Origin: Massalongia carnosa
Taxonomy: Eukaryota
Assembly: GCA_965645245.1 (NCBI GenBank)
Contig: OZ287073.1
Location: forward strand, 1,798,001-1,862,000
DNA length: 64,000 nt
Reading direction: 5' to 3'
Part shown: piece after piece, positions 18,228 to 49,756 of the stretch
Numbering within the stretch: the first letter of the stretch is position 1
Layout of the letters: each line of letters begins with the position of its first letter
Position numbers and translations under genes: made by a program
Notes under the pieces: model-generated
What the model saw: only the letters and a program-made list of their open reading frames with translations
What the model was told of the DNA's origin: nothing
Databases searched by the model: none

Positions 18228-20059
18228 CTCATCCAGGGTGCGTACAAGCTAGCAGTTACACTACGTATTAATAATGTTGCTATTACTGACTAAGTGTATT
18301 CAACACCTACAAATCTACCTATTGCGATGACTTCAACTCCAAAAACTCGTCAGCCAATTGCGATACATCATCTTTTCTAGGCTTCATGGTTTTGGCCACC
18401 TTTCTCACTTGAGCCCTAGCCTGTTTGACTGATTTCTCGACTCTTTGCTGAGATTCCAACTCCAACTGAGCCTTTGATTTCTTCGCCACACCCCGAGACC
18501 TTCGCGTTGTTGCAGAGGAAGTAGGGAGGATTTGACTGGCGCGCACGTTTTGGCTAAGACTATAAAGAGATGGAGCCGGCGCTGCCTGAGGTAGGGCTTT
18601 TTGACTATGCTTGGCAAGCACATCGTCAATATCTTCGAGCGAATCCGACGATGCTTCTGATGTAAGAATAATATCATTTTCGTCATCCGAAGGAAGCATA
18701 GGATCCATAGAGCGACCGAGAATGAGCTGAGTGCTTATATACTGCACCTCGTCATCGTCGTCGGAGACGATAGACGCGTTTTCAATTCTCTCCATAACTA
18801 ATTTTTCTCCTAAACCTATTGTACCCAATATTAGCCGACCCGAGCGCAATAACTTTGCAACATCGTGAGTTTTACAATCTGTTTCACCTTCTGTTTCACC
18901 TTCAACCTCATCGTCGCCCCCAGCACGCAATCTATTATATCTAAGCCTCCTCCTTTGTTCAATAGAGTCCCTTCGCCTAGTACGTCGCTGTTCAGTTTCT
19001 CTAGCCTCAGCTGCCGCGCGACCAGTGTAGGCACGTCGACGACTCCCTCCTTTGTTATACATGAGGTTTTCTTTGGGCCAAATTTCGTCGGGGAATGTGG
19101 TGGGGATGAGAGGTCTTACCAGCTCCTTCTTTTGCCATTTCTTATTGAACTTTTCAACGATGTGAGCATGCTCGCGAGCGTACTCCTCCCTTCGATGAGA
19201 ATCTTCTATTGATTGATGCAGGTCAATAGATTGATATGCCACAGAACGTAGCAAATCAAGGCCCCCGCGGCGAAATCTATCCTCACTCAACATGCCTTCT
19301 TCGAGCTCGACCTCATCCTTATCCGCCTCAATCTCTCCCGTTCCTTCGACCTCATCGACGATCTTTTCGACCTCGGGCTCCGAGCCGCGAGCGAAATCGA
19401 AGGTCATTTGCCAAGAGACCACATAAGGTGGGCCATCAAAAAACCAGGGGGGGTGGATGAGGAAAACAGGAATAGGGACCGAGTCGATGATGCAGTTATA
19501 CAACCAGCATTTGCATGGGAGACCGTACCTTAAAGGCAATTCACAATCATAGACACAGCTTCCACCATCAGGGACAATAGAAAGGATTCGTTCAGCTAAT
19601 GATTTGGCGGCATCGAGTTCTCTTGAAACGAGGCCAATGGCATGATGCGTAATTTTCCCAATGAGTAGCGTAAAAGCATTTCTATCGATCAATCTAGGAT
19701 TGCGGATTCACTGTTGATTGCACAAAATCTCCTGATCTAACTGTTTTTTCCGCACCTCATCACATATTTTCTGCACCGATTGTCTTATAGGCAAGGGCAA
19801 ATGGTAAGTGAGGGTGAGGGTGAGGGTGAGGGTATGCTTTATAAGACCGAGTAGGGTAATTATTAGTAGCAATAACACGTCATACGATTTAAACCGAAAA
19901 GAGTTTAATGTGCTGTTGGCAGTTGCATTACTAGCTTGTACGCACCCTGGATAAGCAGTGAAATGGCTATTTACTAGCAAAGATTTACCACAGGGGGGGA
20001 CGGTCGGGGGGGACGGTCGGGGGGGGACGGTCGGGGGGGGACTGTCCCTAAGCACCTCG
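18228..20059 (-). mobile_element. Internally deleted, non-autonomous copy of MULE-A; one TIR truncated
   Basis: 18228-19790 matches 35592-36911 plus 47245-47498; 19790-20059 matches ~49320-49556 including the TIR. Confidence 0.9.
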
Positions 20060-23500: not shown

Positions 23501-26141
23501 GGGTACTGATATATGGACACCCCATCCGCTACCTAGACACACCCTCTCCGGCTACCTAGACACACCCCTTCCGGCTATCTAGACACCCTACACAAAAAAT
23601 TCTAGGGGTAGGGCTGGACCCCTCCCTAAACCTCATTAGGAAGCCATCTTCCTCGATCAGGATAAGTGACGTAAATTCTACATTTCTCATCTCAATATTC
23701 AGTTTCCTGATCCTACATTCTGGATCAATCATGCCTCTATTACCTCCTGCCGACAGGCAGTCTTTCGAAACTCTAGAAGACTGTCTATTCTGCCTGAATC
23801 GACATGCCGGCCCTGAGGGATACGCCGTTGTCCTGCATCGTACCAAGAAATCAAAGCTGGGAATTCGTCGAAAAGCGTGGATCATCTGCGATCGAGGTCG
23901 CAAGGCCAGACCGCAAGGCGAAGAACGATGTCACAGTAGCCGTAAACGAATTGAGTGTCCCTTTTCCTGCATCGCTACCTTCGTGAACGACGTCGCCTGG
24001 CATTTGGAAGTAGTCAAACCGGAACATAATCATGAAGCTAGCTTGAGTGGAGCACATCCCGCGCATCGAAGAATCGCCTTGATTGAGCATAAGGAGGAGA
24101 TTTCTCGTCAATTGACTGTACAAACCAAACCGGCCAACGTGCTGTCGAGTCTTCGTATTGGAGCTCCGACTCCGAATTCGGTCAGATGGGATGAGAATGG
24201 CAAACCTGAAGTCGTCAATCCGATGTTTATCAGTCGAGACATCTACAAATTTCGAGCTCAATTGCGACGAAATGCTTTGGGCTCATTGACTCCGATACAG
24301 AGTCTGATTCAGGAATTTAACAAGGGCGACTGGGTATACGAGTTGCAGACAAATAATGAGAATCAGGTGAGTTTGACAAGGAAAGGACAACTGAAGTTGC
24401 AGACTAATGACGAGAACCAATCAGATCCTCAATCTTTTTTTCAGTAAATGCAGTACTCAGACTCTTTTGAAGGCAAATCCGGAAGTTTTAGTGATGGATT
24501 GCACCTACAAAACCAACAGATTCAAAATGCCTTTGTTGATCATCGGCGGACAGACCGCATTGCATACTACGTTCTATGTCGCCTTCTGCTTCATGCATGA
24601 GGAGACAAATGAGTCTTACATCTGGGCCATGACTCGTTTGAAAGTCTTGTACTCGCAGCTAGAACTTCCTTCTCCAACGACGACAGTCACCGACATGGAT
24701 AGAGGTTTGATGTCGGCAATTGAGCTGATTTTTCCATCTACCAGTCATTTATTGCGTATCTGGCACATCAATAAGAATGTCCTAGCTCATTGCAAGAAAT
24801 CATTCAGTACTGAGGCATGGGAAGTCTTTTACGGACGATGGAAATCACTTATTAAGGCTGATTCCGAGCCGAATTTTGAAGAGCTGTGGGGACAGTTTCG
24901 AATCACATACAACCGTACACATGCTAATTTGGTGAAGTATCTTAATGCCACCTACATTTCTTTTCGTCAGAGATTTGTAAAGTGCTGGACTGACCGAGTG
25001 AGGCATTTCGAGACAACGACTACTTTGCGAGGTGAGGGCGGACATGCTGTATTGAAAAGGCAGCTGGGAACCTCCAATGGTGACTTAAAAGCAGTCGTAG
25101 ATGGCGTCGCCTTGCTACTAACCAATGAGCTTCATAATCACCTCATTGCCATAAATTCGGCTAAGGATCGCTATCCTACCGACTTGCGCAAACCGATTTT
25201 CCAACGTTTGGCGAGTCGGGTCACCCCGTTTGCACTTCGAAAAATTCTTGGTCAGTACAATTTGTTGGTTGATCAACCAACGGCGATCAGGGCCTGCACC
25301 GAGGTCTTTACTACTGTCACCTGCCTGCCCTGTAGTCACAGAATTCAGGAATGACTGTACGATGACGGTGTTTTGTTGTTGGAGGATGGCCATCCTCATT
25401 GGAGGTTGGTTTTGATCAAACATTGTTGAATTCAACTAATTCTAAATCTAGATTTGAAAGAGACCTTCCAGCTGATGATAATGATCCCTTGCTGGCGGTG
25501 CAGGATCCCGCTGTCGTGCGACCTCGCGGACGCCCTCGAGGTTCCGAAAACAGAAGACAACAAGTCTTTGAAGCTTCTACCCTGCGAGAACCTTCCTTAT
25601 TCGAACGGATTGAGGCGGAAATAGCTGATCTACAAGGCGGGGAGGTGGCTCCGGACGTGGAAGCTGTCGTACATCGGGCTGATCCAGCTCCAGGGCGGGG
25701 ACGCGGGCGGGAGGTACGAGCACGAGGACAGGGACAGCGACAGCGACAGGAATTGGGACAGGGACAGGAACAGGGACGGGGAAGAGGGCGGAGACGAGGT
25801 AGGGCATCTCGGGCAAGGGGCGCTGCTACAAATCAAGAAGGGGCGATACCGAATGAGGTTTAGTGGCATGAAATCAGAGTCTGATTCATGAAGATGATGC
25901 CAATCGACTCCATTTCATCAAGGCAATTGCTGTCCATGAGAGATGTGCACATACTTTTCAATTCCAATTTTGAACGTGGGCGAAAATTTTCAGTCGCTTA
26001 TCCTAATGAGGTTTAGGGAGGGGTCCAGCCCTACCCCTAGAATTTTTTGTGTGGGGTGTCTAGATAGCCGGAAGGGGTGTGTCTAGGTAGCCGGAGAGGG
26101 TGTGTCTAGGTAGCGGATGGGGTGTCCATATATCAGTACCC
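23501..26141 (+). mobile_element. Mutator-like element (MULE-B)
   Basis: ~140-bp TIRs starting GGGTACTGATATATGGACACCCC; 9-bp TSD TTTTTCTGT / TTTTTCTCT with one mismatch. Confidence 0.95.
23731..25863 (+). pseudogene. MULE-B transposase; introns ~24367-24424 and ~25405-25451; one TGA at 25352-25354
   Basis: FAR1/WRKY-like C..C..HNH finger, MDCTYKTN, TDMD, WHINKN, EGGH, LPCSH motifs. Confidence 0.9.
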
Positions 26142-30120: not shown

Positions 30121-31505
30121 TCATTCCATCTTCATCGGCTGCACCCCGAGCCCATTCCGATTTCGATAAAAAACGATATCCTTGCCCAACCCTTCAGCGC
30201 CCTGACTTTCTTCGACCCATTGACACCACCTCGCGCTCGTCCACAAACTTTTCAAGAAGCCAATGGCGCCGTCCTTGGTGTCGGAGCGATAATGCGTGCC
30301 CATGACGGTTTTGATGGCTTCCGTGGCTTCCTCTGCATGGTAGAATGGGATTACCGAGACGTAATGGTGTAGGACGTGGGTTTCAATGATGCCGTGGAAC
30401 AAAGAACGCCCAATGAATCCGAATTCACGGTCAATCGTCGCTGCGGCTCCGGCTGTGAAGTTCCAAGTCTTCGGTCCGTAATGCGGAATGGAGGGATCTG
30501 TGTGTTGCAGATAGGTGATTGCAACTCCATGATGTCAGCTCATCATCATCGGCGAGTAACCCTGTTGCCTCTCTACCGACTCTATTTGGGGGGAAGCCGG
30601 AACGTACCTAGCCAATGGTTGACCCATAAGTAAGGAATGCCATACCACACGAGGAGATTGTACCATCCATAAGCCTGAGCGAGTTGATAGAGCACTATCG
30701 CCGTGAGACCTAACCCCACGTCGCTTAACACAATGTATTTGGCGTCTTTCGCTTCGAAGAGAGGGCTGGCAGGGCTAAAGTGATTCACACCTCCACCGGG
30801 TCCATTCCGTTTCCCAACACCACGGCCTTCAATTTGCCGCTCGTGGTAGTTGTGTCCAGTGTTATTTTGTAGTAGATACAAAGGCCACCCAATGAGTTGA
30901 CGAGCGAACAGTACAAGCGCAGTCATCAAAGGAGCCTCCTCGGTCAACTCTGACAGCTCAGCAACCCGTCTGTGGGCTCGGCTTGCGTAAATTTCACGCG
31001 TCTTGGGGAGAAAGACCATGTCTCGTTCCATATGGCCTGTGCTTTTATGATGCTTGCCGTGAGAGATTTTCCAAGAAAAGTACGGCACGAAAAGGGCCGA
31101 GTGTATCACCCAGCCCGTCGCATCATTCAGAGTCTTAGACGTCGAAAAGGACTGGTGGCCGCACTCGTGTGCAATCACCCAAAGACCTGTCGCGAACAGC
31201 CCTTGAACAAAGCCGTAGATTGTCCATAAAACGAAACGAACCATGACAGAGTGGATATTGTCCGGCGTGGCATAGCGATGAAAGAGATAGAAGGTAGATA
31301 TCAATAACAGAACGTCTCTGGCAACGTAGCCAAAACCACGGAGCGCTGATCTCTCAAAGCAGTGAGCGGGGATGACACTTCTGACCTGCTTCATGGTGAA
31401 ATCCGGGACTTGAAAGTCATTCCCATAAGTGTCCACGAGACTGCCATAGGGTGATTTCATGTCGTTTTTCCTCCTGAGCAAGTGGACTTGTTCATCTACA
31501 ACCAT
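30121..31505 (-). CDS. Delta-12 (oleate) / omega-type fatty acid desaturase, FAD2-like; exons 31505-30608 and 30524-30121; start uncertain
   Basis: Three His boxes HECGH, HGKHH, HVLHH; VPDFT..V..IPAHCFERS; splicing restores HWL-VAITYLQHTDP. Confidence 0.93.
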
Positions 31506-32020
31506 CGTAGATCAAATAATTAGGGGTGGATACTCTGTCCGGAGAAGTGGGGAAGCAGCTTCGTCACTTTTGTCAGACTTGAAAGAGCCAACGATGCTCG
31601 GCGACGAAGCGTACGGGTTGTGTATCACAATCGTAATTCTTTGCAGTAGTATGGAAGAAGGTCAAGAGGGAGTTCGAAGATAACAATCGCCTAAATTCCA
31701 TTTCCACAGCTGCCAGGAAAAATGTTGAATGCAATGGGGCTCGGACATTGCGATTGAATTGCCCCAAAAGTTTGAGTTGGGGGTCGGTTCGGATCAGGGT
31801 GATTGGCTGGTGTAGATGTGGTGTGACTGGGATTCCGTTTGCAGCGAGTGCCGTCCATTCATCAACTAATTGGACTGATCATTGGCCAATCATTATAGAC
31901 ATGTGATAATCGCCTTCGTTGTGCTGGCTGGTGATTGCTTTTGTTGGCTTATCACGAGGTTTCAACCGTTAGACAAAAGCTAGAGATCTAAAATTTTCAA
32001 TACAATATAACCACCGTATC

Positions 32021-32092
32021 GGCCTGCTGGGTCAGAAACCTCTACGTGGTGCAGGCTATCAACACCTCCTCGGAGGTGGCCAATATCTGATC
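32021..32092 (+). ncRNA. HDV-like (delta-like) self-cleaving ribozyme
   Basis: P1 GGCCUGC/GCAGGCU with G1-U wobble; P3 ACC/GGU; L3 UCUACGU; P4 CACCUC/GAGGUG; J4/2 GCCAA; P2 GGUCAGA/UCUGAUC; all in HDV order. Confidence 0.85.
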
Positions 32093-32177
32093 ATCGCCAA
32101 CGCGGAAGTCCACCTCGGTGGCCATTTGAACGATCAACGTCTCTACTGATCATTCGTCACCTCGAAGGCACACATAC

Positions 32178-32323
32178 AAAGCCCATTCATTCGGAATGGC
32201 CACACCCCTCAGGCGCAAGCCTTTCACCTCATCGAAAAAGCCCATTCATTCGGAATGGCCACACCCCTCAGGCGGAAGCCTTTCACCACATCGAAAAAGC
32301 CCATTCATTTAGAATGGCCACAC
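32178..32323 (+). repeat. ~59-bp tandem repeat (~2.5 copies) inside the retroposon
   Basis: AAAGCCCATTCATTCGGAATGGCCACAC recurs three times. Confidence 0.9.
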
Positions 32324-33789
32324 TTACACACCTTCATTTATACGACACCACGATCTGCCCTCGATCACGGCCAGTCTTTCCTCCATTGAATCAAAACGTT
32401 TAAAAAGAGAGAACGTTCGTCGAACGTGTGGAAATACACTGTCTAGTTCATCGAGTCTATAGGATTCCTAGCGCTTGAAGATCTAGGTATATGCACCGCG
32501 TGGTAGAAGGACGGTCTCGTTGCGTTCAACATGGAACAAGGGAGTGGTTTTACCCTGGGGGCCAGGTTTCCACTTCCTGACTGTTGTTTATGTACATAAA
32601 TAGCAGTCACAGCGTCATATCCTTAGGATGCATACGCTTAATGAATTAATAAAATAAAAAAATAACCACCGTATCTACTCCTCCTCGAAATACACGATAT
32701 TGCTCACCTTATTCCATGACAGATAACTAATACACTAGTACCAAGACATTTGGAAAGATAGACCCTCAATACCGATGTACGATACCGTATTGACCCTACG
32801 TTTGATTGGTTCGGGAGCTCTGCATCCCCTCGAAGCGGTGTCAGCCTTCGCATTCTTCATGATTCAGGCTGTCTACTCTCTAGTCTCCACGAGAGGACGA
32901 GAAGCATTTGATAATAATCATCTTGTTGGCATAAAGATTTGAACATTATGTTCAAGTGCTGAGGCTGGCCCGCTACTAGCCTGGTGGCTAAGAGTACCGA
33001 CAATTAATGCTGCATCTTTACACAGTCCTATCACTCAGGCTCAAGCCGTGCGGGATTATCATTGGGACTGTTCGCGCCCACGTCGTACATCCAGAAGGCA
33101 AGGCAATCATCATGCGTGGCTAGTATTTTGAGACTAATGGTTTGGATCAGCTCGAGCGACTAAGATGCAGGGTTCGAACGCGGTATTCAGCCTTACTGAA
33201 AACAAAAGGAGAAAATTGCCGATTTGCATAAGTGTAGGGGCCCCAAATTGGTAACGATTGCCCTTGGGCTTCAGGAGCTGAATAGAGAGCTTCGTTTGCT
33301 GAAACGATGAAGGGTTCTCAATCAACTTGGAGGCTTGACATTGCAGACATGGAGAATGAATTGGCGGTTAGAAGAAAATTTGACTGGCTACCGAGCACGA
33401 TGATTTGTCGTCCCGATGCTAATCGGGGTATATAGCACATTCATTTTATATGCTCGACATTCGTCAGAAAGGGTGGTGTGAATAATGATCATGTGCCACC
33501 TATGCCAGCAGCGCGGCGTGTTATCCTAAGCCCAATGGCCGAGGTGAGTGCCCACCACACATCAAGATGATGTTATCTGGCTTTTGCTCTTCTGGGGACT
33601 GGAATGATGCGCGATGGAGCCTTATCTTGTTCCTTCATATTGCGTTTCTTCTAGAGAGGCATGAACATTAAGCTTTATGCTCTTCACAATTAATCAATAG
33701 TCCTAAGTTTTTTCTATGAAGAATTCCTGCTGTCTAGAAAACGGTTTATTGCCTGGTGAAGAACCTAACGCTTTGTGCAGCGGGCCGCA

Positions 33790-35209: not shown

Positions 35210-35681
35210 TCTTGTCCGAACAAACCGAGACCAGGAGAGATCAGCTATCGAGCTAAATTATCCAGTGATGCATGAATCATTTCCATCTCATTAATCAAAG
35301 TTTAATTATGGATAGGTGATCGGCCCAAAGCCATCTTTCGAGAGTAATTGCTCCATTGCAGTAAGCAAGATTTGAACCGTTGATGCTCGACGGTCCCTAA
35401 TGCTGCCGGAAAGCGCATGATTTAGTAAAACGCTATTTGCTCTCCAGGGGGAAATACCCTATCGACATGGTTCTAAGTTATGGAGGCAAATTATGTTGAT
35501 ACAAACTGCCCGAGATGCTTAGGGACAGTCCCCCCCCGACCGTCCCCCCCCCCCTGTGTAAATCTTTGCAAGTGAACAGCCGTTTCACTGCTCATCCAGG
35601 GTGCGTACAAGCTAGCAGTTACACTACGTATTAATAATGTTGTTGTTACTGACTAAGTGTATTCAACACCTACAAATCTAC

Positions 35682-36911
35682 CTATTGCGATGACTTCAAC
35701 TCCAAAAACTCGTCAGCCAATTGCGATACATCATCTTTTCTAGGCTTCATGATTTTAGCCACCTTTCTCATCGCCGATTCCTTTCTCGCTTGAGCCTTAG
35801 CCTATTTGACTGATTTCTCGACTCTTTGCTGAGATTCCAACTCCAACTGAGCCTTTGATTTCTTCGCCACACCTCGAGACCTTCGCGATGTTGCAGAAGA
35901 AGTGGGGAGAATTTGACTGACGCGCACGTTTCGACTAAGACTATAAAGAGATGAAGGCGGCGCTGCCTGAGGTAGGGCTTTTTGACTATGCTTGGCAAGC
36001 ACATCGTCAATATCTTCGAGCGAATCCGACGAGACTTCTGATGTAAGAATAACATCATTATCGTCATTCGAAGGAAGCATAGGACCCATAGAACGACCGA
36101 GAATGGGCTGAGTGCTTATATACTGCACCTCGTCATCGTCGTCGGAGACGATAGGCGCGTTTTCGATTCTCTCCATAACTAAGTTTTCTCCTAAACCTAT
36201 TGTACCCAATATTAGCCGACCCGGGCGCAATAACTTTGCAACATCGTGAGTTTTACCTTCTGTTTCACCTTCAACCTCATCGTCGCCCCCAGCACGTAAT
36301 CTATTATATCTAAGCCTCCTCCCTTGTTCAATAGAGTCCTTTCGCCTAGTACGTCGCTGTTCAGTTTCTCTAGCCTCAGCTGCCTCGCGACTAGTGTAGA
36401 CACGTCGACGACTCCCTCCTTTCTTATACATGAGGTTTTCTTTGGGCCAAATTTCGTCGGGGAATGTGGTGGGGATGAGAGGTCTTACCAGCTCCTTCTT
36501 TTGCCATTTCTTATTGAACTTTTCAACGATGTGAGCATGCTCGCGAGCGAACTCCTCCCTTCGATGGGAATCCTCTATTGATTGATGCAGCTCAATAGAT
36601 TGATATGCCACAGAATGTAGCAAATCAAGGCCCCCGCGGCGAAATCTATCCTCACTCAACACGCCTTCTTCGAGCTCGACCTCATCCTTATCCGCCTCAA
36701 TCTCTCCCGTTCCTTCGACCTCATCGACGATCTTTTCGACCTCGGGCTCCGAGCCGCGAGCGAAATCGAAGGTCATTTGCCAAGAGACCGCATAAGGTGG
36801 GCCATCAAAAAACCTGCGGGGGTGGATGAGGGAAACGGGAATAGGGACCGAGTCGATGATGCATTTATACAACCAGTATTTGCATGGGAGACCGTACCTT
36901 AAAGGCAACTC
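35682..36911 (-). pseudogene. MULE-A transposase, C-terminal part
   Basis: YGLPCK (SWIM-like) region; near-identical to the protein at 18319-19692. Confidence 0.82.
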
Positions 36912-37796
36912 TGTTGAGAATTGAGCCGAGATGTCTGCTTATTAATAAGAGCACTAACCGAATGCGGATCAAGCACTAAGGGTTATTTCGGCCGTGGCAA
37001 CACATCACTAATCATTCGAGATGTCATCCATCTGCCAGCTAAGGGAGGCAAAACGGAATATATTGTTAGCTAGTTCGTGTCAATCTCGTTATATTGCTAC
37101 TAAGTATGTTTGGGCTATTGCTCACAGCCCCCGGCCTCGAGAGGGGGACTCGATAAGGGCCTTGCTGTCTACTAATGTAAGACCCTCTCGCAGGCCTTGG
37201 GCTGTGAACAGACTCCCTCTATCTAAGCGACAGAAGAACTGGAGTGGGTGGGTGGGAAAGAAAACGTTGCAAACAGTGCTATCAAAATGCTATGCTTTTT
37301 GATTGTCTTGAGATGTGAGATGATGAGGGATACCGTCTGGGACCTCCTCTTTATATATCTTCTTCCTATTCTCCTTGTCCTACTCTACCACCCCAGTATG
37401 CCCCATCAACGCGGCCCATAGCAAGGCATACACAAATCCGAAACCTAACTGTCGTCCGAAGGATCGATGCGGTGCTAAGATCTCTATGCCGTGCTGAGAC
37501 ATCCTTATGGTGCTGAGACATCTATGCCGTCCGAGAGATCCATGCGGTGCCGAAATCAAAGCGGGAGCTGTCTCGATTAACGACGCACTAGCTCTCAGCA
37601 TAGCCGAACTAGCTAGTTCGTGTCAATCTCGTTATATTGCTACTAAGTATGTTTGGGCTATTGCTCACAGCCCCCGGCCTCGAGAGGGGGACTCGATAAG
37701 GGCCTTGCTGTCTACTAATGTAAGACCCTCTCGCAGGCCTTGGGCTGTGAACAGACTCCCAATCCCCAACATGGAACGACCCGCTTGCGGTGTTGT

Positions 37797-38852
37797 TCAG
37801 GACCTAGTGACTGGATTGTGAGGTTCCGTGGGTAATGTTTGAAGGCGTTTTGAGGCGTTAAGAAGGTAAGTGGGGTGGGTTTGTATGTAAAGCTTGTATG
37901 CGTCTGACTTCCATCTTCCTAGCATCTGAATCTCGTCTTCGGTGAGTCCTGCCCGTCGCGCTGTTGTTGCCGCACCTCTTCTGAACGAGTGGCCAGAGAA
38001 ATTTCCTATATAGCCCAAGTTCCTTAAGGTGGATTTCATCGCTGTTGTAATGTAGTCTCGAGTGAAGGACTGACCGTTTTTAAAGAGTGGTGCGGCCGGA
38101 GAACTTGGGAATCGCCTATATAAATTTGTAAGAGAAGCTAGTGCACAAGCAACATCGTTGGTAGCCGCAATTGTCAGTGTTATGCCTCGGCGAAAGGGAT
38201 CGGTTTTGGAGACTGGTAGAGAGAGCTGTAGGTGATCTGCTTCGAACCTAATAGATTTTCTGGTGAGGTGCCATTGATCAAAGCTTGGGTCTAGTACATC
38301 TTGCGTTGTGTAAGTAAATTCTCCGGCTCGTAAGAAGCCTGCAAACGCTAAGCAGTACGCCGCATGTAAATTTGCGCCTTTCTCTTTCGTTTGATCAAGA
38401 CGACTTAGCAATTTGATTAAGATCTCTCTAGTAATTGGTAACCTTTCACGTTTCTCGGCTTCACCGTTCTTTCGCTTTATGCCAGTAAGGATGCGATCTA
38501 ACACCGGGTGATGAAATACGTCGAGATTACCGAGGCCCATATCTATCTGGCATGATCTTATGCCCGTCAAGTAGCTCTTAATAGTTTTTGGTTGCAGGCG
38601 TCGTTCACCCAACGCTGCGATCCACGAAGACAGCGTCCGGATGTTGGCTGGAAATGGTGGCGCGTTGAGGTTTACCCTACAGTAAAGAACGTATCCCTTT
38701 CTTGCCGTTGTGTATAAAGATCTTGTCTTAGTGGCCAGGCCCCACCAGAGGTATCGTGCTGCGATTTCGTCTAGAGGTACCTCACTGTACCAAGATGGGG
38801 GTGGATCGCGTCCTATATTGCTGAGGGTAGAGCCTGAAACTGAGGGATTTTG
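37797..38852 (-). CDS. Tyrosine recombinase of the Ngaro element (frame open from 38852; no 5' ATG)
   Basis: Catalytic set FLRAGE, SKTD, HSFRRG, LGRW, YI; N-terminal AARYLWWGLA..T domain upstream of the listed ORF start. Confidence 0.93.
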   Translation of the reverse strand, partial: QNPSVSGSTLSNIGRDPPPSWYSEVPLDEIAARYLWWGLATKTRSLYTTARKGYVLYCRVNLNAPPFPANIRTLSSWIAALGERRLQPKTIKSYLTGIRSCQIDMGLGNLDVFHHPVLDRILTGIKRKNGEAEKRERLPITREILIKLLSRLDQTKEKGANLHAAYCLAFAGFLRAGEFTYTTQDVLDPSFDQWHLTRKSIRFEADHLQLSLPVSKTDPFRRGITLTIAATNDVACALASLTNLYRRFPSSPAAPLFKNGQSFTRDYITTAMKSTLRNLGYIGNFSGHSFRRGAATTARRAGLTEDEIQMLGRWKSDAYKLYIQTHPTYLLNASKRLQTLPTEPHNPVTRS

Positions 38853-40429
38853 TCAGCCAGTTTCTTCAAAAGTCCTCTAGACAAGAGATCAGCAATATAA
38901 TTTTCTTTGGATGATATCCATCGCGCTTCTATCTGGATATCATGTAATGCAGCTAGCATTGTAATTGCCCGCAGGGCATGCATTGCTTGGCCTCGTATAG
39001 AGGTTTTATTCACTCCTTTCGTGACAGCGTAGCTATCACAATAGAGGATTAAATGACTACCCTTGCATATAGGTAGCCACTTTTTCATAGCTTGAAGAAT
39101 TGCTGTCATTTCTTTGACGTTGATATGCTTTGCCCTAAGGCGCGTAGTAAAGCGTGTGCTAAAAGCCTGCCGGGCTGCTTGTATATTATGCAAATTTTGA
39201 TCCTCGCTGAGGATAAAGCCGCCCATACCATATGAGCCGGACGCATCTGTCCATATTCTCATAGTATGTCTAGTACGGTTGAGCAGATGTATGCCATTCC
39301 ATTTAGGTAGGAAATGATGCCACCATAGAAGATCAGCCCTCATGTCCTTGTTAAGATGGATTAGTTTAGAGGTTACGCTTGCCGTAGCATTGAAAAGACG
39401 GCGTAGAAAGGCTCTTCCTGGTTTTACCACTCTGGCTGCAAAGCATAAGAATCCTAGAAGAGAGTCGAGTTCCTTCCTGGGTATGGCTTTTTTATTCAAA
39501 GCTGCCGATACTAGGGTCTTTGCTTTTAGTAACTTTTCGGAAGGCAAGCGTGCTTCCATGAGCGCGGTATCGATTTCAATGCCGAGGAAATCGCAAGTCG
39601 TTCCAGTTCTGTTCTTTTCGAGCTTGATTTTCATGCCAAGATCTTTACAAATGTTGTGGAAAACTTGATCAAACTTTTCAGCATCTGGTCCGGTGCTGAC
39701 TATTATTAAAAAATCATCCAAGTAATGAATAGCGTCTTTCCAACCACAGTTGTACAATATCCAGTTGATACCCTTCGCGAACAGATCAAAAAGGAACGGC
39801 GACGTTCTCAGCCCAAAGGGTAAGTATTTATCCATCCAAAAGGAATCCTGCCACTTGAAACCTAGTAACCACCAATCGCTTTTTGCTACTGGTATGTGGC
39901 GAAAAGCGTCCGCAAAGTCTCTTTTAATAAGAATACACCCTGGCCCGCGTTGCTTAATCAACCTAATGGCTTCGTCGAAGCTGGTATATTCCAGGGAGCC
40001 CCAGTCTTCCGGTATGTGGTTGTTGACTGAGCTACTCTCCGGATACGATAGATGATGGATTCGCCGCCAACCACCGTTAGCCTTTGGTACAAGGCCTAAT
40101 GGGGAACATATAAAGCAAGAAGGAATGTTGTTGACTTTCTCCAACCGATTACTAGCTATTTGTTCTTCGAGGTCATTGGTAAGAACTTCCGGTGCCTCAT
40201 TTGCAGAGGCAAGATTATCGCTAATAATGAGTTGATGTGGTCCTGTATAACCAACTTTGGCACCGTAGGTGATGATATCGATAATTGTTTGTGTGTAAGT
40301 GCGATCCGGGTGATTGGCCAAATGTTTCTCCCAGCCTTCTTTCTTCAATGGGCCCGGTGGGATCTTTGTTAGATTGTCCGTCAAGGTGTATGGAAAGGAC
40401 TCCGCGATGGATAAGAATGGGGCGGTTAG
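38813..40429 (-). CDS. Reverse transcriptase / RNase H of the Ngaro element
   Basis: WRRIHHLS, DFADAF, LPFGL, YLDD, TDASG, NVKE, ADLLSR motifs; frame open back to the gag stop. Confidence 0.95.
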   Translation of the reverse strand, partial: LTAPFLSIAESFPYTLTDNLTKIPPGPLKKEGWEKHLANHPDRTYTQTIIDIITYGAKVGYTGPHQLIISDNLASANEAPEVLTNDLEEQIASNRLEKVNNIPSCFICSPLGLVPKANGGWRRIHHLSYPESSSVNNHIPEDWGSLEYTSFDEAIRLIKQRGPGCILIKRDFADAFRHIPVAKSDWWLLGFKWQDSFWMDKYLPFGLRTSPFLFDLFAKGINWILYNCGWKDAIHYLDDFLIIVSTGPDAEKFDQVFHNICKDLGMKIKLEKNRTGTTCDFLGIEIDTALMEARLPSEKLLKAKTLVSAALNKKAIPRKELDSLLGFLCFAARVVKPGRAFLRRLFNATASVTSKLIHLNKDMRADLLWWHHFLPKWNGIHLLNRTRHTMRIWTDASGSYGMGGFILSEDQNLHNIQAARQAFSTRFTTRLRAKHINVKEMTAILQAMKKWLPICKGSHLILYCDSYAVTKGVNKTSIRGQAMHALRAITMLAALHDIQIEARWISSKENYIADLLSRGLLKKLADKIPQFQALPSAI

Positions 40430-41584
40430 TCATTGCCTTGATGGGAGAGGCATCGAATTTGGGTTAGAGGGTTGATTTTTTCCATTTGTACAGTCCATCG
40501 CCCGATGTTGCTTTCCACATTTCTCACACACATGTTGGAATCTACAATATACGGGACAGTCTTTGCCATAGTTGTATTTCTTACAGATAATCTTTTCGCC
40601 TGAGGTTTTGAAAGCCGTAGAATTATCGTCCGGTTTTGCAAAGTAAGCGGACGGTTTCCGCACAAGATGCCTTTCCAAGGAATGGTCCATTTCTTTCCAT
40701 CCATCCGGGTTGTCAATCCCGCGAAAGGCTCGAGATTTGTGGAAATTCAAATGAAAGATGCGAACCGAGTCCCAGGTGTAGAAGGCGTATAATGATAGAA
40801 GATGGTCCTGATAAGCCATGAAGGCTCTCATCAGGTTTATCTGGAGACCGGGGTGTGCAAAGTGTAGTAGTATCATCCAATATACCCCGAGACATCGTAT
40901 CAAATGAACTATCCCTTTGATATCTTTTAAGGAGCCATCTTCTTCTCTCGTGGCGATTTCCAGACCTTCTCCGAGTTTGACGTATCTAGAGTTGGTTTGA
41001 ACTCCGTCGATGTCGGTACATAGCTTGGTAATGTTGATTGGGTCAAACGTATTCTCGGAGATTTGCTTTATCCATATGGGCTTGATAGTGGGATATTCGT
41101 TCATAAGAGAAACAAAACGAGGATCCATACCTTCTGTATACAATGAGTTTGGTCGATGCGGTGGAAATGATGTCGGAAATAATAGGGAAGGCTGTTGAGC
41201 TGAGGCTACTGGCCCAGGGACCACGTCTCGGGCACGTGCTTGTTGGGTTTCGATATCCCGCCTAAGACTTACTCTTTCTCTTTCCTCGGCTTCCCTGCGG
41301 GACATTTCGCGTTGTGCTCTAAGTTCAATAATGTCATCAGGGGTGCGAGAACGGGTTTCCGGTATAACAGGCCCTTGTGAGGAGGAATTAAACGCTGAAG
41401 ATGGAAGAGGAGAAGGTTGAGGATGGCTTTGAAGGGTTGCCGTGCTGTCTTGTGAGTCGGGTACTTCGACGTCTGGGTTGGAGTTGGCTAGATTTGCCCT
41501 AGCTCTAGTTCTAGTACGGGCTAGAGTGCTGCCTTGTGTGCGGGAGGTAGGCTTGGTGATTCTGTTGGAGATGCGGGTGGCCAT
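40430..41584 (-). CDS. Gag-like protein of the Ngaro element
   Basis: ATG at 41584 (MATRISN); C-terminal CCCH/CCHC fingers CKKYNYGKDCPVYCRFQHVCEKCGKQH. Confidence 0.88.
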   Translation of the reverse strand: MATRISNRITKPTSRTQGSTLARTRTRARANLANSNPDVEVPDSQDSTATLQSHPQPSPLPSSAFNSSSQGPVIPETRSRTPDDIIELRAQREMSRREAEERERVSLRRDIETQQARARDVVPGPVASAQQPSLLFPTSFPPHRPNSLYTEGMDPRFVSLMNEYPTIKPIWIKQISENTFDPINITKLCTDIDGVQTNSRYVKLGEGLEIATREEDGSLKDIKGIVHLIRCLGVYWMILLHFAHPGLQINLMRAFMAYQDHLLSLYAFYTWDSVRIFHLNFHKSRAFRGIDNPDGWKEMDHSLERHLVRKPSAYFAKPDDNSTAFKTSGEKIICKKYNYGKDCPVYCRFQHVCEKCGKQHRAMDCTNGKNQPSNPNSMPLPSRQ

Positions 41585-42333
41585 TTTTGGAGGAGAGGGA
41601 TTTGAATAGAGTAAATTTAAGTGTAGTGGTTGTATAAATTTGAATTGGGTGAAAAGAAAACGTTGCAAACAGTGCTATCAAAATGCTATGCTTTTTGATT
41701 GTCTTGAGATGTGAGATGATGAGGGATACCGTCTGGGACCTCCTCTTTATATATCTTCTTCCTATTCTCCTTGTCCTACTCTACCATCCCAGTATGCCCC
41801 ATCAACGCGGCCCATAGCAAGGCATACACAAATCCGAAACCTAACTGTCGTCCGAAGGATCGATGCGGTGCTAAGATCTCTATGCCGTGCTGAGACATCC
41901 TTATGGTGCTGAGACATCTATGCCGTCCGAGAGATCCATGCGGTGCCGAAATCAAAGCGGGAGCTGTCTCGATTAACGACGCACTAGCTCTCAGCATAGC
42001 CGAACTAGATGGTGAGGCTACCATTGGTTAGATGGTCAGGCTACCATCAATATAGGCATCCATCGTGAGTCACACGGGTGTCTACCAGGCACCTATGGAG
42101 GTGCCTAACAGGCAGCTATGGGAAGCCTACAGCATTACTGCTGTGTGACTGCTATAAAAGCAGGTAGATAGCCCACATAGATAATAACTCTCAATGATAT
42201 GTATGCTTCTTATTTGCCCTACTTCCGTTTCATGATCAATAGCCTGGTGTTTCAACAGGTTATGAGCCCGGTCAGCTATTAGAGAAATAAGAAGCCATTG
42301 ATATTCGACTCCACCCTAATTCGTTTCGTCCCA

Positions 42334-45300
42334 ATGTCTTCATCAGCTGCGTCAACGTCGACCACCCCGCTGGGGTCCGGAAAAGGGCCGGAAGAAGAGT
42401 CGACGAGTGAGAATGTTGATGGCCAGTATAAGGCTGGTGTGGGATTAAAAGGTGAGATTAAGGTGACAAAACTGACACAGGATAACTTTCGTACCTGGAT
42501 GAAGATCATGCGACTTAATCTAATCGGTAAGAAGTTGTGGGGTATCGTCGACGGTAAGACAGCACGCCCCAGCGATTCTAGACCGAATGATCAGACGTCT
42601 TGGGAGTTTGATAATGCAACGGTTATGACCTACATCATGACGTCTGTAGACGACGAGCAGTTGCAGCACATCGTACTCTTGGACACCGCCAAGGAGCAGT
42701 GGGACACGTTGTATCGAATTCATCAGGACATAGGAAAAACACGGCTGGTTCCCCTACTGCGAAGACTGTCAGCGTATCGAGCTGGACCTTCACAGACGGT
42801 GGAACAGATCGCGTCGGAGCTTAGAAAGATAGCTTCAATCACAGGAGAAATCAGACTTGAGGAAAAGCCTTCGGATTTCTTTCTAGCTCGTACCCTTCTA
42901 GACTCGGTGGACGGCAGCGCGTATGCAATGGCCCGAGCCCTGTTGGAAGAGAAAGACGATTTGACCATGTTGATGGTCATCGAAAAGTTCAAAGAAGTTG
43001 AACAGAAGAACAAGGACAATGAGGTAAACATTCACGAAGTTGCTAATAGGGCGTCATCCGATCGAAAGTTCAGTGGAAAATGCTACCATTGCGACAAAGT
43101 GGGGCATATAAAGACCAGCTGTTTCTTATGGTTGAAAACGGATGAGGGCCAGAAGCATCAAAAGGGGAGTGAGAATACTGATCATATGTCGAATAAAACC
43201 CGAGGTAAATCATCGAACGGGGGACGGGGCCGAAAGCCGAAGAAGTCGGAAGAGGCACGACTGACCCGAGAGGATGAAGATGACGCTCGATCCGAAGCCA
43301 GCGATGCTTCAGAGTACGCCAGGATGGCTGTTGAAGACGCTGAAGAATATATTCAGGCCGCCCAATTCGAAGCCCAGGAGGAATATGCCCTGGCCGCGAC
43401 TGCACGAATGGGGGCTGGATCTGAAGCCCAGGCCGCTCGATTTGGCGCGATTGCGCAAACGGGGGCTGGCACTCCATCGAAGGAATGGATTATTGACTCC
43501 GGAGCGAGTCGGCACATGACTCCTGATAGGGGGTTATTCGTCAGCATGATGCTGATTAGGACGACAGTGAGGGTGGCCGATGGTACGGTCATTTTGTCAA
43601 TTGGTAGAGGAGACGTCCTTGTACGGATGAGAAACGGGGAGAAGATACGACTGACTGAAGTGTTATTTGTCCCCGAACTCGATACCAACCTACTGTCGAT
43701 ACGGGCTCTTCAGGCGAAGGGAATTTCCGTCCGCTTCGGCCTGAATGGAGTCGAAATCACCCGCGGTGAGGCCTTATTGGCCACCGGAGTGTTGTCTGGA
43801 TCGTCGTACCTATTGAGGCCAGCCAGAGAGGATGTGGCCCTGATTACTGAGGTAACGAAGGAGAAACACTCACCGAACCCGGCTCGGGATGATTATTTGT
43901 TATGGCATGCGCGAATGGGGCATGTCAGTCTCAAAAGACTAGAGAAACTTCCATCATTGACCACCGGAACGGGTGCGATCAAAGGAGTGGATGCAACCGC
44001 TCATTCTGATAAGTGCGTCACCTGCAAATATACCAAAATGACGAAGGTAATCAGTCGAATGCCGCCATTGAAATCAACGCGACGAGGAGAACGTACGTTT
44101 TCGGACTATTGGGGCCCGTACAAGGTAGCGAATCTTCAAGGATCGCAATATTTCCTGTCATTTGTCGATGATTTTTCTCGTCGATCTGAGGTGTATTTTG
44201 GATCGAGGTTGACCCTGAAAGAAAACTTTCAACGATATAAAGCGAAGTTCGAAGTCGAGACTGGAGAGAAGCTAGGTCTAATTCGTACGGATAACGCAAA
44301 GGAATATCACGCTTTGGAAAAAGACCTTCTGAAAGAAGGCATTCAAATGGAGTTTACAGACCCGTACACCCCTGAGCAAAACGGGGTCGCTGAGCGTCTG
44401 AATCGAACCCTAATGCAGATGGTTAGGGCTATGCAACTATGGGCTGGATTGCCCAGGGAATTTTGGGGGGAGGCCTTGATGGTCGCGAATTATCTTCGGA
44501 ATCGGCTCCCAACCAATACACACGGAGGGAAAATGACTCCATACGAGGCCTGGTACGGCCGAAGACCGGATCTGGGCCACTTACGAACCTATGGATGTTT
44601 GGTTCATGCCCGTATCCCCAGCGAAAGAAGAGACAAAATGGATGTCGTCTCATTTCAGGGAGTATTCGTCGGGTACCACTCATCAAAACAATATCGAATT
44701 TATAACCCCAAAACGAAGAAAATCGGATGGCATTCGAGCCTTGATTTTTTCGAGGACTGGCCTGGGGGACCATTGTTAAACGTTCCTACCGAGTCAGGGA
44801 CATGGGAAATTGACACAATTGACAGCGATTACGAGCCCGACAAGTATCTCGACAATCAACTCATCACCAACGAGGGGGGAGATGAGGTCATTGGTGATAA
44901 CGGCCAAAACAAGAATTTATCAGTAGGGGCTGACCCCACATCTCAAATTGAAAATCCTGAAGAGATTACATCGCCAGTGGGAGCTGATCCCGCCTCTTCA
45001 AATGAAGGAATACCCACGATTGAACTGAATGCTCAGTCAAACACAGGTATCCCTGCAAGTATCGAAGGCAAATCGCCCAGAAAAAGGACTCCTACAACGA
45101 CTGCATTCACCCGATCAAAGAGAGAGAGAAAGCCGTACGACAAATACGCATTCGACAATAATCAAGCTCTTCAAACAAATGACGATCATGATCCCACTTC
45201 GTACAGTGAGGCCGTCAACGGAAAAGACTGGCGAAAATGGAAAATAGCCATCAAAGAAGAACTCGATGCCCTACTGTCAAACGGAACATTTTTGGTGGTA

Positions 45301-46719
45301 AATCAGCCCTCGAATCGAGACCTGATCACGTCCAAATGGGTATTCAAGGTAAAACGTCATGCGAATGGAATGATTGATCGCTACAAAGCACGTCTGGTAG
45401 CCAGAGGATTTAGTCAGAAATACGGAATTGACTATAATGAAACGTTTGCCCCAACCCTGAGATGTGAGACACTCATAATTCTCTTTGGGATAGCCGCCGA
45501 ACTGGATCTGGAAATTCAACAGGCCGATGTATCAAACGCGTACCTTATAGGTGAATTAACAGAGGAAATATACATGGAGATACCTGAAGGACTTGAGGTC
45601 AAAGGACATGAGAAAGCAATTCTTCTAAAAAAGGGATTGTACGGCTTGAAGCAATCAGGGCGAATTTGGAATCAACGTTTCAAAAAATTCGTCATAAGCA
45701 TCGGATTCAACGTTATTCCGGCCGACAATTGTGTCTTTTATCATCCTGTCAGCAAAGTTATTATAGCCATCTATGTGGACGACATTTTGTATTTCGGACA
45801 ACAAAACTCGGATATCAAAGCTGTAAAGATACTTATCAGCGAAGAGTTTAAGGTACGAAACATGGGGGAACCACGCTCAATTCTTGGTATACGCATCACC
45901 AGAGATAGAGCAAAAAGAACAATCACCATGGATCAAACAGCCTACATTGAGAGGTTCCTTCGCGATTATCAGATGGACCAGTGTCGGCCCGTTTCCACCC
46001 CTATTGAGGGACACTTGTCGTCTGCAAACGAAAAAGACGTTCGTACCAATCAGCTGGAATATCAACGACGAATAGGAAGCTTGATGTATGCCATGACTGC
46101 AACCCGTCCTGACTTAGCCTACTGCGTGGGAAAATTAAGTCAGCACAGTCATGATCCAACCGAATCACATCGCAGCGCTCTGGATCGAGTCTTTCGCTAC
46201 CTGAAAGCCACGTCAAAATTGGGATTGATCTTTGACGGTAGCTCCGAAGTAATTGCATTTGCCGACTCCGATTATGCTAATGAAAAAGCTGACCGAAAGT
46301 CAACTCACGGAATGGTAATGAAAATTTTCGGGGGAGCGTGCATCTGGCGAAGTGCCAAACAGCGATCGACGTCATCATCGAGTACCGAAGCCGAATACGT
46401 CTCCATGTGCGAAGCCGGAAAACAGCTCGTTTGGGCCAGCAGATTAATGAGTCAATTGCATCTGCGTCCCAATAAGGCCATTGACTTGAAGGGTGACAAT
46501 CAGGGATGTTTAGCACTTATTAAAAATCCTGAACATCACTCTCGTACAAAACACATTGACGTTCAGTATCACTACATTCGGGAAATCGTCGACGATGGGT
46601 TAATTCGAATTTCCTACGTCCCCACGGCCGAAATGTTAGCTGACATATTCACCAAGCCTTTGCCACAGGCATCATTCGAACGGCTCCGGGCAAGCCTAGG
46701 GGTGAGGATAGTTAGCTAA
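42334..46719 (+). CDS. Intact Copia-C gag-pol polyprotein
   Basis: Single ORF with CCHC knuckle, IDSGAS, WHARMGH, RTDN..E, PEQNGVAER, YVDD and ADIFTK motifs. Confidence 0.97.
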   Translation: MSSSAASTSTTPLGSGKGPEEESTSENVDGQYKAGVGLKGEIKVTKLTQDNFRTWMKIMRLNLIGKKLWGIVDGKTARPSDSRPNDQTSWEFDNATVMTYIMTSVDDEQLQHIVLLDTAKEQWDTLYRIHQDIGKTRLVPLLRRLSAYRAGPSQTVEQIASELRKIASITGEIRLEEKPSDFFLARTLLDSVDGSAYAMARALLEEKDDLTMLMVIEKFKEVEQKNKDNEVNIHEVANRASSDRKFSGKCYHCDKVGHIKTSCFLWLKTDEGQKHQKGSENTDHMSNKTRGKSSNGGRGRKPKKSEEARLTREDEDDARSEASDASEYARMAVEDAEEYIQAAQFEAQEEYALAATARMGAGSEAQAARFGAIAQTGAGTPSKEWIIDSGASRHMTPDRGLFVSMMLIRTTVRVADGTVILSIGRGDVLVRMRNGEKIRLTEVLFVPELDTNLLSIRALQAKGISVRFGLNGVEITRGEALLATGVLSGSSYLLRPAREDVALITEVTKEKHSPNPARDDYLLWHARMGHVSLKRLEKLPSLTTGTGAIKGVDATAHSDKCVTCKYTKMTKVISRMPPLKSTRRGERTFSDYWGPYKVANLQGSQYFLSFVDDFSRRSEVYFGSRLTLKENFQRYKAKFEVETGEKLGLIRTDNAKEYHALEKDLLKEGIQMEFTDPYTPEQNGVAERLNRTLMQMVRAMQLWAGLPREFWGEALMVANYLRNRLPTNTHGGKMTPYEAWYGRRPDLGHLRTYGCLVHARIPSERRDKMDVVSFQGVFVGYHSSKQYRIYNPKTKKIGWHSSLDFFEDWPGGPLLNVPTESGTWEIDTIDSDYEPDKYLDNQLITNEGGDEVIGDNGQNKNLSVGADPTSQIENPEEITSPVGADPASSNEGIPTIELNAQSNTGIPASIEGKSPRKRTPTTTAFTRSKRERKPYDKYAFDNNQALQTNDDHDPTSYSEAVNGKDWRKWKIAIKEELDALLSNGTFLVVNQPSNRDLITSKWVFKVKRHANGMIDRYKARLVARGFSQKYGIDYNETFAPTLRCETLIILFGIAAELDLEIQQADVSNAYLIGELTEEIYMEIPEGLEVKGHEKAILLKKGLYGLKQSGRIWNQRFKKFVISIGFNVIPADNCVFYHPVSKVIIAIYVDDILYFGQQNSDIKAVKILISEEFKVRNMGEPRSILGIRITRDRAKRTITMDQTAYIERFLRDYQMDQCRPVSTPIEGHLSSANEKDVRTNQLEYQRRIGSLMYAMTATRPDLAYCVGKLSQHSHDPTESHRSALDRVFRYLKATSKLGLIFDGSSEVIAFADSDYANEKADRKSTHGMVMKIFGGACIWRSAKQRSTSSSSTEAEYVSMCEAGKQLVWASRLMSQLHLRPNKAIDLKGDNQGCLALIKNPEHHSRTKHIDVQYHYIREIVDDGLIRISYVPTAEMLADIFTKPLPQASFERLRASLGVRIVS

Positions 46720-46837
46720 GGGGTTTGGACGTACATCGGCCGTTTGGCCCATGGCCCAGGGGACAGGCCCCGAGGGCGACACGCGATGGTTGGTACAGCG
46801 AGGGCATGAGGCCATCCAAACAATCTCGGAGTGGGAG

Positions 46838-47244
46838 TGTTGAGAATTGAGCCGAGATGTCTGCTTATTAATAAGAGCACTAACCGAATGCGGATCAAGC
46901 ACTAAGGGTTATTTCGGCCGTGGCAACACATCACTAATCATTCGAGATGTCATCCATCTGCCAGCTAAGGGAGGCAAAACGGAATATATTGATAGATGGT
47001 GAGGCTACCATTGGTTAGATGGTCAGGCTACCATCAATATAGGCATCCATCGTGAGTCACACGGGTGTCTACCAGGCACCTATGGAGGTGCCTAACAGGC
47101 AGCTATGGGAAGCCTACAGCATTACTGCTGTGTGACTGCTATAAAAGCAGGTAGATAGCCCACATAGATAATAACTCTCAATGATATGTATGCTTCTTAT
47201 TTGCCCTACTTCCGTTTCATGATCAATAGCCTGGTGTTTCAACA
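46838..47244 (+). repeat. Copia-C 3' LTR
   Basis: TG...CA; matches the reconstituted 5' LTR. Confidence 0.96.
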
Positions 47245-49237: not shown

Positions 49238-49339
49238 CGCGATGAGAAGTAGTAAAATATATAATATGAGGTATAGCATAAGTGGAAGGGGAGATTTAGA
49301 GAGGGCAAAGGGTTAGGACAAGGGCAAGGGCAAATGGTA

Positions 49340-49372
<33 letters not shown>

Positions 49373-49756
49373 ATGCTTTATCAGGCCGAGTAGGATAATT
49401 ATAAGTAGCAATAACAGGTCAGACGATTTAAACCGAAAAGAGTTGGCAGTTGCATTACTAGCTTGTACGCACCCTGCATGAGCAGTGAAATGGCTGTTTA
49501 CTAGCAAAGATTTACACAAGGGGGACGGTCGGGGGGACTGTCCCTAAGCATCTCGGACAGAATGCGCGATTTGGTACTCTGTAGTTTGCCGTAGTTTGAA
49601 GGTGGGGGTTAGAGTGCTCTGATCAAGGTATCGACTTCTCGCTACCCCCTCACTGCCCCTACTCGATACTCTCAGTACCCTTTCCTCATCGTACTCGAGT
49701 TCATATCGTTTCATGTTGTTTATCAGATCAAATGAGTGGTATAATATTTAATCTGC

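Follow-up and report, generated by a model that had tools for sequence, protein, structure and literature searches.

The stretch analysed here, called the window, is 64,000 nucleotides of Massalongia carnosa DNA (contig OZ287073.1 of assembly GCA_965645245.1, positions 1,798,001 to 1,862,000 of the forward strand), and our subject is a 641-bp insert near its middle whose first 72 nt are predicted to fold as a self-cleaving ribozyme of the hepatitis delta virus (HDV) class. The insert and its parts, in window positions, are the following.

32021..32661, plus strand: 641-bp non-coding retroposon copy, the single copy within the 64-kb window
32007..32020, plus strand: left 14-bp target-site duplication, ATAACCACCGTATC, an exact match to the right copy
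32662..32675, plus strand: right 14-bp target-site duplication, ATAACCACCGTATC, an exact match to the left copy
32021..32092, plus strand: predicted HDV-like self-cleaving ribozyme with its predicted cut 5' of G32021 (pair check, sub-threshold Rfam matches, descriptor)
32178..32323, plus strand: internal 59-bp tandem repeat of 2.5 units (TRF), the number of units differing between copies (contig comparison)
32578..32609, plus strand: stable 3'-region hairpin (self-complementary blastn match; minimum free energy (MFE) fold of 32440-32661)
32640..32661, plus strand: A-rich tail with AATAAA at 32648-32653 (sequence)

Exactly two occurrences of the 14-bp sequence ATAACCACCGTATC were found in the window, one at 32007-32020 and the other at 32662-32675, and none of 100 dinucleotide shuffles held two matches. 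The 3' terminus of the insert reads ...AATGAATTAATAAAATAAAAAA, an A-rich stretch following AATAAA. A target-site duplication of variable sequence and an A-rich 3' tail are the hallmarks of target-primed reverse transcription, and both are present at this copy. No long ATG-initiated open reading frame (ORF) was found in the insert, the longest stop-to-stop frame being 130 aa without an initiating ATG, and no protein remnant was found in any of its frames. ARAGORN detected no tRNA in the 64-kb window, no Rfam tRNA, 7SL or 5S match was obtained, and the best matches in the insert to an A box and a B box carry three and two mismatches, respectively, the latter lying inside helix P2 of the predicted ribozyme. 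Since there is no tRNA-, 7SL- or 5S-derived head and no A/B-box promoter was found, the element is SINE-like rather than a short interspersed nuclear element (SINE) in the strict sense. Nothing resembling the insert, a long interspersed nuclear element (LINE) included, was found elsewhere in the window. The hairpin at 32578-32609 is a candidate recognition element for a reverse transcriptase, a putative function. The locus agrees with the initial annotation, which had described a 641-bp insert flanked by a perfect 14-bp duplication, ending in an A-rich tail and having neither a long ORF nor tRNA-type A/B boxes.

Within the first 72 nt of the insert, P1, P2, P3 and P4 follow one another in the canonical order and spacing of a nested double pseudoknot, with joining (J) and loop (L) segments as listed.

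32021-27/32051-57, plus strand: P1, 7 bp, from G32021-U32057 to C32027-G32051, with the G-U at the cut site (script pair check)
32028-29, plus strand: J1/2 (fold assignment)
32030-36/32086-92, plus strand: P2, 7 bp, one G-U included (script pair check)
32037, plus strand: extra unpaired A between P2 and P3 (pair check), which the initial annotation lacked
32038-40/32048-50, plus strand: P3, 3 bp, ACC/GGU (script pair check)
32041-47, plus strand: L3, UCUACGU (sequence check)
32043..32058, plus strand: sole possible P1.1 pair, U32043-A32058, the adjacent C32042/U32059 being a mismatch
32058-62, plus strand: J1/4 (fold assignment)
32063-68/32073-78 (hairpin 32063-78), plus strand: P4, 6-bp hairpin with loop CUCG (script pair check)
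32079-85, plus strand: J4/2, GCCAAUA (sequence check)
32080, plus strand: C75 equivalent in J4/2 (G-C-C-A-A), by RF00094 alignment (GGCuAA versus GGCCAA), with a putative catalytic role from the established HDV mechanism

A purine, G32021, occupies position +1 with a purine-pyrimidine pair at the base of P1, and this G1 is the first base after the target-site duplication. The nested part of the fold (P1, P3 and P4) comes to -24.0 kcal/mol versus -25.3 for the nested MFE structure, 1.3 above it, and the P2 duplex adds -7.3. The positions that had been proposed beforehand for P1, P2, P3, L3 and P4, with a G1-U wobble, were checked by script and every named helix pairs as stated; P1.1 is indeed cut down to U32043-A32058, its second candidate (C32042/U32059) being unable to pair, and the C75 equivalent placed at 32080 aligns to the GGCuAA of RF00094.

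Searches with Rfam gave a graded picture. At gathering thresholds no match was returned in the 64-kb window. In a search of 801 nt, RF02682 aligned full length at 32022-32092 with 26 bits (gathering score 44; E=0.014), and RF00094 aligned full length at 32019-32094 with 25.1 bits (gathering score 50; E=0.25), its G1 falling on 32021. In the whole-window search RF02682 at the ribozyme was the top match of all families, with E=1.1, and therefore Rfam alone does not establish the HDV fold. The initial annotation had looked to Rfam HDV models for a check: two of them do align over their full length at 32021, although both stay below their gathering scores.

A descriptor of our own, distinct from the published one, was also applied. 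It asked for seven pairs in P1, G1-U among them, for three in a P3 that adjoins P1', for 6-9 nt in L3, for five or more pairs in P2, for a hairpin at P4 and for C-N-A-A in J4/2. Three matches were obtained in the real window (32021+, 5493+ and 32269-), whereas 60 dinucleotide shuffles averaged 0.98 per 128 kb, and when a rule for L3 was added (U first, CG later) two real matches stood against 0.033 in the shuffles. From these shuffle rates, a match at one predefined base, the first of the insert, is expected about 1e-5 to 3e-7 times. The two further matches were set aside. That at 5493(+), 116 nt long with P1 GAUGUGU/GCACGUU and L3 UAUUCUCG, lies near a Copia long terminal repeat (LTR) and is probably due to chance, having a weak, GU-rich P1 and no Rfam model, while that at 32269(-), which lies inside the tandem repeat and is without an HDV-like L3, was judged a chance match.

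A second pattern, 14 nt + N9 + CAAC, was run against metagenomes. This looser pattern gave at least 119 loci, of which 118 are noise from protein-coding 'NLYVV...N' sequence (NHL-repeat-like) and only one, L103, is a ribozyme. At 272-417 (minus strand) of L103, a tRNA (anticodon CAU, 57.7 bits) is followed directly by an HDV-like ribozyme that scores 39.2 bits with RF02682 (gathering score 44), and therefore the Rfam threshold misses such ribozymes. Its P3, its L3 and the AUCAAC of its J1/4 are the same as those of the window ribozyme, the search pattern having fixed all of these letters except AU. The arrangement matches that of the phage theta ribozymes (PMC10879173), where the ribozyme trims a tRNA 3' end on a phage or bacterial contig and has no link to retroposition. 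L103 shows a core with a single possible U-A pair in P1.1 in a second natural setting, which suggests that cores of this type are used in nature.

The contigs of four public runs (X1, X4, X5 and X6) were compared with 31400-33300 of the window at a likeness of at least 85%, and the 22 runs listed as containing the element, none of them of RNA, include ones labelled lichen metagenome. Contigs matching the element numbered 2123 in X1, 257 in X4, 123 in X5 and one in X6. The unique flanks in X1 have a word depth of 846-877, whereas the element bins sum to 278,000-781,000, which puts the summed element depth at 323-907 times that of the flanks (median 620); because summed contig depth is not true copy number, we read this only as 'hundreds' of copies. 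X4 lacks the flanks; there the depth of a single contig is about 25, and the element bins sum to 2,700-13,000. The X1 contigs are spread over identity classes of 99% and above (867), 95-99% (733), 90-95% (439) and below 90% (84), indicating that the family has both young and older copies. Loose 3' ends of copies fall at 32646-32665, and tails are therefore of variable length. Internal-deletion joints are many among the copies, several of them in the 59-bp repeat region, and among the 15 of 37 joints listed there was no empty-site contig bridging 32020 to 32676. With the 130-aa open frame as query, ten ORFs called on at least eight other Mb-scale contigs were found to carry element sequence, while a metagenome scan for a 28-nt ribozyme core gave 0 matches.

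The single X6 contig (7074 nt) provides a second locus. Its copy spans 32021-32177 and 32237-32665, lacking 32178-32236 and thus one 59-bp unit, with 0 and 10 differences in its two pieces, and a 13-bp duplication, TATTCACAATAGA, stands directly before G1 and again after the A-rich tail. Taken with the contig counts, these data place the insert in a family, as the initial annotation had supposed, and we conclude that it is a multi-copy, dispersed, non-coding element of the target-primed reverse transcription type.

Two further arrangements were seen among the contigs. In one X1 contig 32650 is followed at once by 32021, giving a head-to-tail tandem copy from which ribozyme cutting would release unit-length RNAs. 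In four X5 contigs the match stops at 32092, where the ribozyme ends, and different sequence follows, which hints that the ribozyme module may also head another element, possibly an autonomous partner.

We next consider where copies begin. Among the 20 of 202 loose-end records listed, contigs leave the reference in the upstream direction at 32021 (10 in X1, 9 in X4, 5 in X5 and 1 in X6), at 32020 (5 in X1, 6 in X4 and 1 in X5) and at 32017 (4 in X1 and 3 in X5). The sequences upstream of the copies agree with their consensus at only 0.42-0.59, and the flanks are therefore unlike. Ends at 32020 are as expected if one flank base matches by chance. In the 32017 class four upstream nucleotides match, more than chance would give, and these copies may be nested in another repeat or may reflect a target preference. 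At the protein level, three of the ten database ORFs read through the 5' junction. Starting with PAGSETSTWCR they match the window residue for residue; just before it stands an NGG codon, read as G, R or W (Arg in the window), and the peptides further upstream show no relationship. An exhaustive search with the 45-aa ribozyme-encoded peptide against 1.84 billion representatives returned the same three ORFs and, besides them, only three repetitive, unrelated proteins. By the listed loose ends, the 5' ends of copies are uniform at G1 and not ragged. It had been anticipated that copies would have distinct duplications and the same G1 start, and this is what the two loci display (14 bp in the window and 13 bp in X6, with unlike flanks); heterogeneous 5' ends, named beforehand as an outcome that would speak against the proposal, are not what the contigs show, their listed loose ends piling up at G1.

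Variation among the copies was scored by counting as variable any place at which at least 10% of the depth differs from the window; 40 of 45 records were listed, amounting to 39 distinct places. All 39 fall within 32104-32624. None lies in 32021-32103 (5.05 expected, P=0.0045) and none in the 72-nt ribozyme (4.4 expected, P=0.0096), the 11 bases after the ribozyme (32093..32103, plus strand) being likewise free of listed variants, with the first listed variable site at 32104. By the listed places, no part of the element varies less than the ribozyme block.

A diverged relative, P0130, is carried by a 7360-nt contig from a different source, and its 5' half is kept at the peptide level. The codon that contains U32057 changes from Leu to Pro, which on this peptide reading implies a change of G1-U to G1-C with the pair retained. 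The P4 region is two codons shorter, as would be expected of an HDV-class ribozyme, whose P4 varies, if the peptide is a faithful guide; on the codons alone one might guess at a mini-P4 there. No additional relatives came up when the body of P0130 was used as query. The stretch at 32105-32135 of the window (a CCACC..GGUGG hairpin, CCAUU, ..GAUCA) looks like an incomplete duplicate of P4, J4/2 and the 3' strand of P2, and it too is kept at the peptide level in P0130.

Our favoured reading, to which we give a probability of roughly 0.7, is that the insert is one member of a non-LTR retroposon family that is non-coding and present in many copies in a lichen-forming ascomycete, and that its 5' 72 nt are an HDV-like self-cleaving ribozyme. 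Such an element is SINE-like in size and dependence, with no head of the RNA polymerase III (Pol III) type, and probably trims its own front end. It would be transcribed inside a longer RNA or from a start just upstream. The ribozyme, whose fold was computed, would fold co-transcriptionally and cut 5' of G32021, so that every RNA would start at G1 whatever lies upstream, while AAUAAA and the A-rich tail, both seen in the sequence, would set the RNA 3' end. An endonuclease and a reverse transcriptase encoded by a LINE would then act in trans and copy the RNA into a new site by target-primed reverse transcription, a step that would leave duplications of 13-14 bp such as those seen at the two loci. 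Transcription within longer RNAs, cutting and reverse transcription in trans are proposed because R2, RTE, L1Tc and NARTc behave in this way. Of what the initial annotation had put forward as its interpretation, a multi-copy non-coding element of this type with a common G1, an HDV-like architecture and no Pol III boxes stands on observation, and cleavage, read-through transcription and trans-mobilisation we retain as parts of the proposal.

Several points weigh against a ribozyme that cuts. P1.1 is one U-A pair instead of two, and there is one extra A between P2 and P3. Ribozymes with a one-pair P1.1 can be active, CPEB3 being an example. Both Rfam HDV matches are far under their gathering scores, with the whole-window RF02682 E value given above. 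In equilibrium folds of read-through contexts the pair probability of P1 is about 0.4 (200 nt) and about 0.1 (340 nt), and cleavage would therefore depend on co-transcriptional folding. If all five further variant records lay in the ribozyme, its depletion of variable places would vanish (P about 0.5). Because the ribozyme is invariant in the listed variants there is no covariation among copies, and the one visible change, U57 to C in P0130, is one-sided and is read from peptide rather than DNA. Finally, transcription initiated at G1 by an internal promoter would give a uniform 5' end just as well.

This last point leads to an alternative in which the conserved block at 32021-32103 serves as a promoter inside the element, as a signal for transcription start or as a structure bound by protein; its HDV-like fold would be vestigial or a mere resemblance, no longer able to cut, and G1 would mark initiation. 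The weak P1.1, the extra A in J2/3, the sub-threshold Rfam scores and the disfavoured P1 in long-context folds would all sit comfortably with it, and in L1Tc and NARTc the same 77 nt serve as both promoter and ribozyme, according to passages of PMC3383444 and PMC3185411. A promoter role is plausible and need not exclude cleavage. As a replacement for cleavage we think it unlikely, in that the four helices, the cut-site G-U, the L3 letters and the C-N-A-A of J4/2 are all intact in a family of hundreds of copies, and the tRNA-adjacent L103 agrees in L3 and in the AU that precedes the CAAC of J1/4 while also being sub-threshold (39.2 versus 44). That an ordinary 5'-truncated or otherwise unremarkable retroposon happens to begin with an HDV-like fold is very improbable and already disfavoured: a whole-window E of 1.1, about one loose-descriptor match per 128 kb of shuffled sequence and two further matches in the real window are what chance could point to, but the match starts precisely at the element's first base (a per-position probability of at most about 1e-5), the 5' ends of copies are uniform, the block is the least variable, and two independent Rfam HDV models align there over their full length.

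A different question is whether the family is an independent SINE-like lineage or, like R2 SIDE, a short, internally deleted derivative of an autonomous LINE with which it shares a 5' ribozyme and a 3' untranslated region. R2 SIDEs and NARTc stand in this relation to R2 and L1Tc, as described in parts of PMC3414825 and PMC3185411, and the four X5 contigs that diverge after 32092, together with the many internal-deletion joints among copies, are what such an origin might leave behind. On the other side, nothing else in the window is like the element, no protein remnant is present and the body holds a 59-bp tandem repeat, and we lean slightly away from derivation. It concerns origin and is compatible with the mechanism proposed above for a ribozyme-headed element.

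The surroundings of the insert identify its host and the company it keeps. The neighbouring ORF at 30582-31505 (minus strand) encodes a delta-12 fatty-acid desaturase whose closest named relatives are from lichen-forming fungi, Alectoria sarmentosa (80%) and Bacidia gigantensis (76%), followed by Physcia, Polycauliona and Chrysothrix. The host belongs to the lichen-forming ascomycetes and, most likely, to the Lecanoromycetes. The window is a nest of Copia, Gypsy, Mutator-like (MULE) and pogo-type elements. Four LTR retrotransposons, two Gypsy-type and two Copia-type, lie at 53308-59014, 37257-41952, 42006-47244 and 63-5186; comparison of 132-300 nt of their LTR pairs gave 99-100% identity, an intact ORF of 1473 aa is present in one Copia (42298-46719), and all four look like very recent insertions. 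A Mutator-like element at 23501-26141 has 141-bp terminal inverted repeats that are 99% complementary, with ORFs carrying AFT/FAR1 DNA-binding and MULE transposase domains (23731-25354). There are also repeats of an unclassified element, 93-97% identical, pairing 18224-19791 with 35587-36549 and 19790-19997 with 49311-49524. The unclassified-element ORFs at 18319-19692, 35802-36908 and 49757-51649 have no Pfam match, and GGGTGA-type short repeats are present.

If the ribozyme cuts, the family would be the first in fungi, within the literature searched, in which a retroposon is shown to fix its 5' end by an HDV-like ribozyme; its hundreds of copies would make it unusually successful, and the HDV-class ribozymes scattered through ascomycete genomes would gain a possible function. 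We found no literature tying an HDV-class ribozyme to a fungal retroposon, in a search that left most subscription journals outside, so that absence is not proven. On the same condition, the family would serve as a marker for repeat annotation in the genomes of lichen fungi, in which elements of this sort, being without Pol III heads, easily escape notice, and it would give structure-function studies a compact natural ribozyme whose P1.1 has one pair. A broader and rather doubtful idea is that the 72-nt ribozyme is a portable 5' module of several retroposon families in lichen-forming and other ascomycetes, an autonomous LINE among them. Were this true, high-copy fungal retroposons with RNA polymerase II read-through and 5' ends of their own making would fill the niche held elsewhere by Pol III SINEs, and most of the fungal HDV ribozymes published with 'widely variable gene associations' would turn out to head elements of this sort.

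Comparison with known systems places the element among ribozyme-headed retroposons of other lineages. The trypanosomatid non-autonomous retroposons NARTc, RIME and SIDER carry a 5' HDV-like ribozyme, as reported in sections of PMC3383444 and PMC4035085. Like them, the lichen-fungus element is a non-coding, dispersed, non-LTR retroposon with an HDV-like head, theirs (Pr77/L1TcRz) being of about 77 nt and cutting at +1 (parts of PMC3185411, PMC3383444 and PMC4035085), and it has a tandem arrangement, here in the one X1 contig that joins 32650 to 32021. Unlike theirs, its host is an ascomycete and not a kinetoplastid and there is no sequence relation, and for theirs the sharing of a head with an autonomous LINE and a promoter activity of the head are known. 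In L1Tc, cleavage by the ribozyme is reported to depend on co-transcriptional folding, downstream sequence attenuating it (a passage of PMC3185411).

The R2 SIDEs and R2/R1 hybrids of Drosophila likewise have a 5' HDV-like ribozyme, and the R2/R1 hybrids give 14-bp duplications, according to portions of PMC3414825. The R2 SIDEs share with our element the absence of an ORF, being joined to a LINE 3' end and mobilised in trans; however, they are site-specific for ribosomal DNA, rare and co-transcribed by RNA polymerase I, whereas the lichen-fungus family is dispersed over varied targets in hundreds of copies (same portions of PMC3414825). A 2019 review states in part that some non-autonomous SINEs use HDV-like ribozymes, and that in the RTE, Baggins and R2 LINEs of metazoans, non-LTR elements that are without a promoter and are transcribed by read-through, the 5' end is set by a ribozyme (PMC6765202). 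Those LINEs are autonomous and of animals, whereas the present element is non-coding and fungal. The primary work on ribozyme-terminated RTE, Baggins and R2 LINEs is reportedly that of Ruminski in 2011.

In fungi, Li and Breaker (2017) described 230 HDV-variant ribozymes in 26 species, Eurotiomycetes among those listed, with 'widely variable gene associations', as sections of PMC5640933 give it; the word retrotransposon has no occurrence in its text. These HDV-class ribozymes of ascomycetes share with ours an extra nucleotide between P2 and P3, here A32037, and this is the sole variant feature in common, since they typically have a C-G cut-site pair and an E-loop in P4 whereas ours has G-U and a plain 6-bp P4 hairpin (sections of PMC5640933). 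Further afield, Sm-alpha (hammerhead) and Perere-3 (twister-variant) of Schistosoma mansoni and the retrozymes of plants also bear a 5' self-cleaving ribozyme, with duplications abutting the cut site, but their ribozymes are of other classes, and retrozymes move via circular RNAs and LTR machinery (parts of PMC8501958 and PMC4918200). We regard the lichen-fungus element as a new fungal case of a strategy known from trypanosomatids and insects, in which no new principle is involved.

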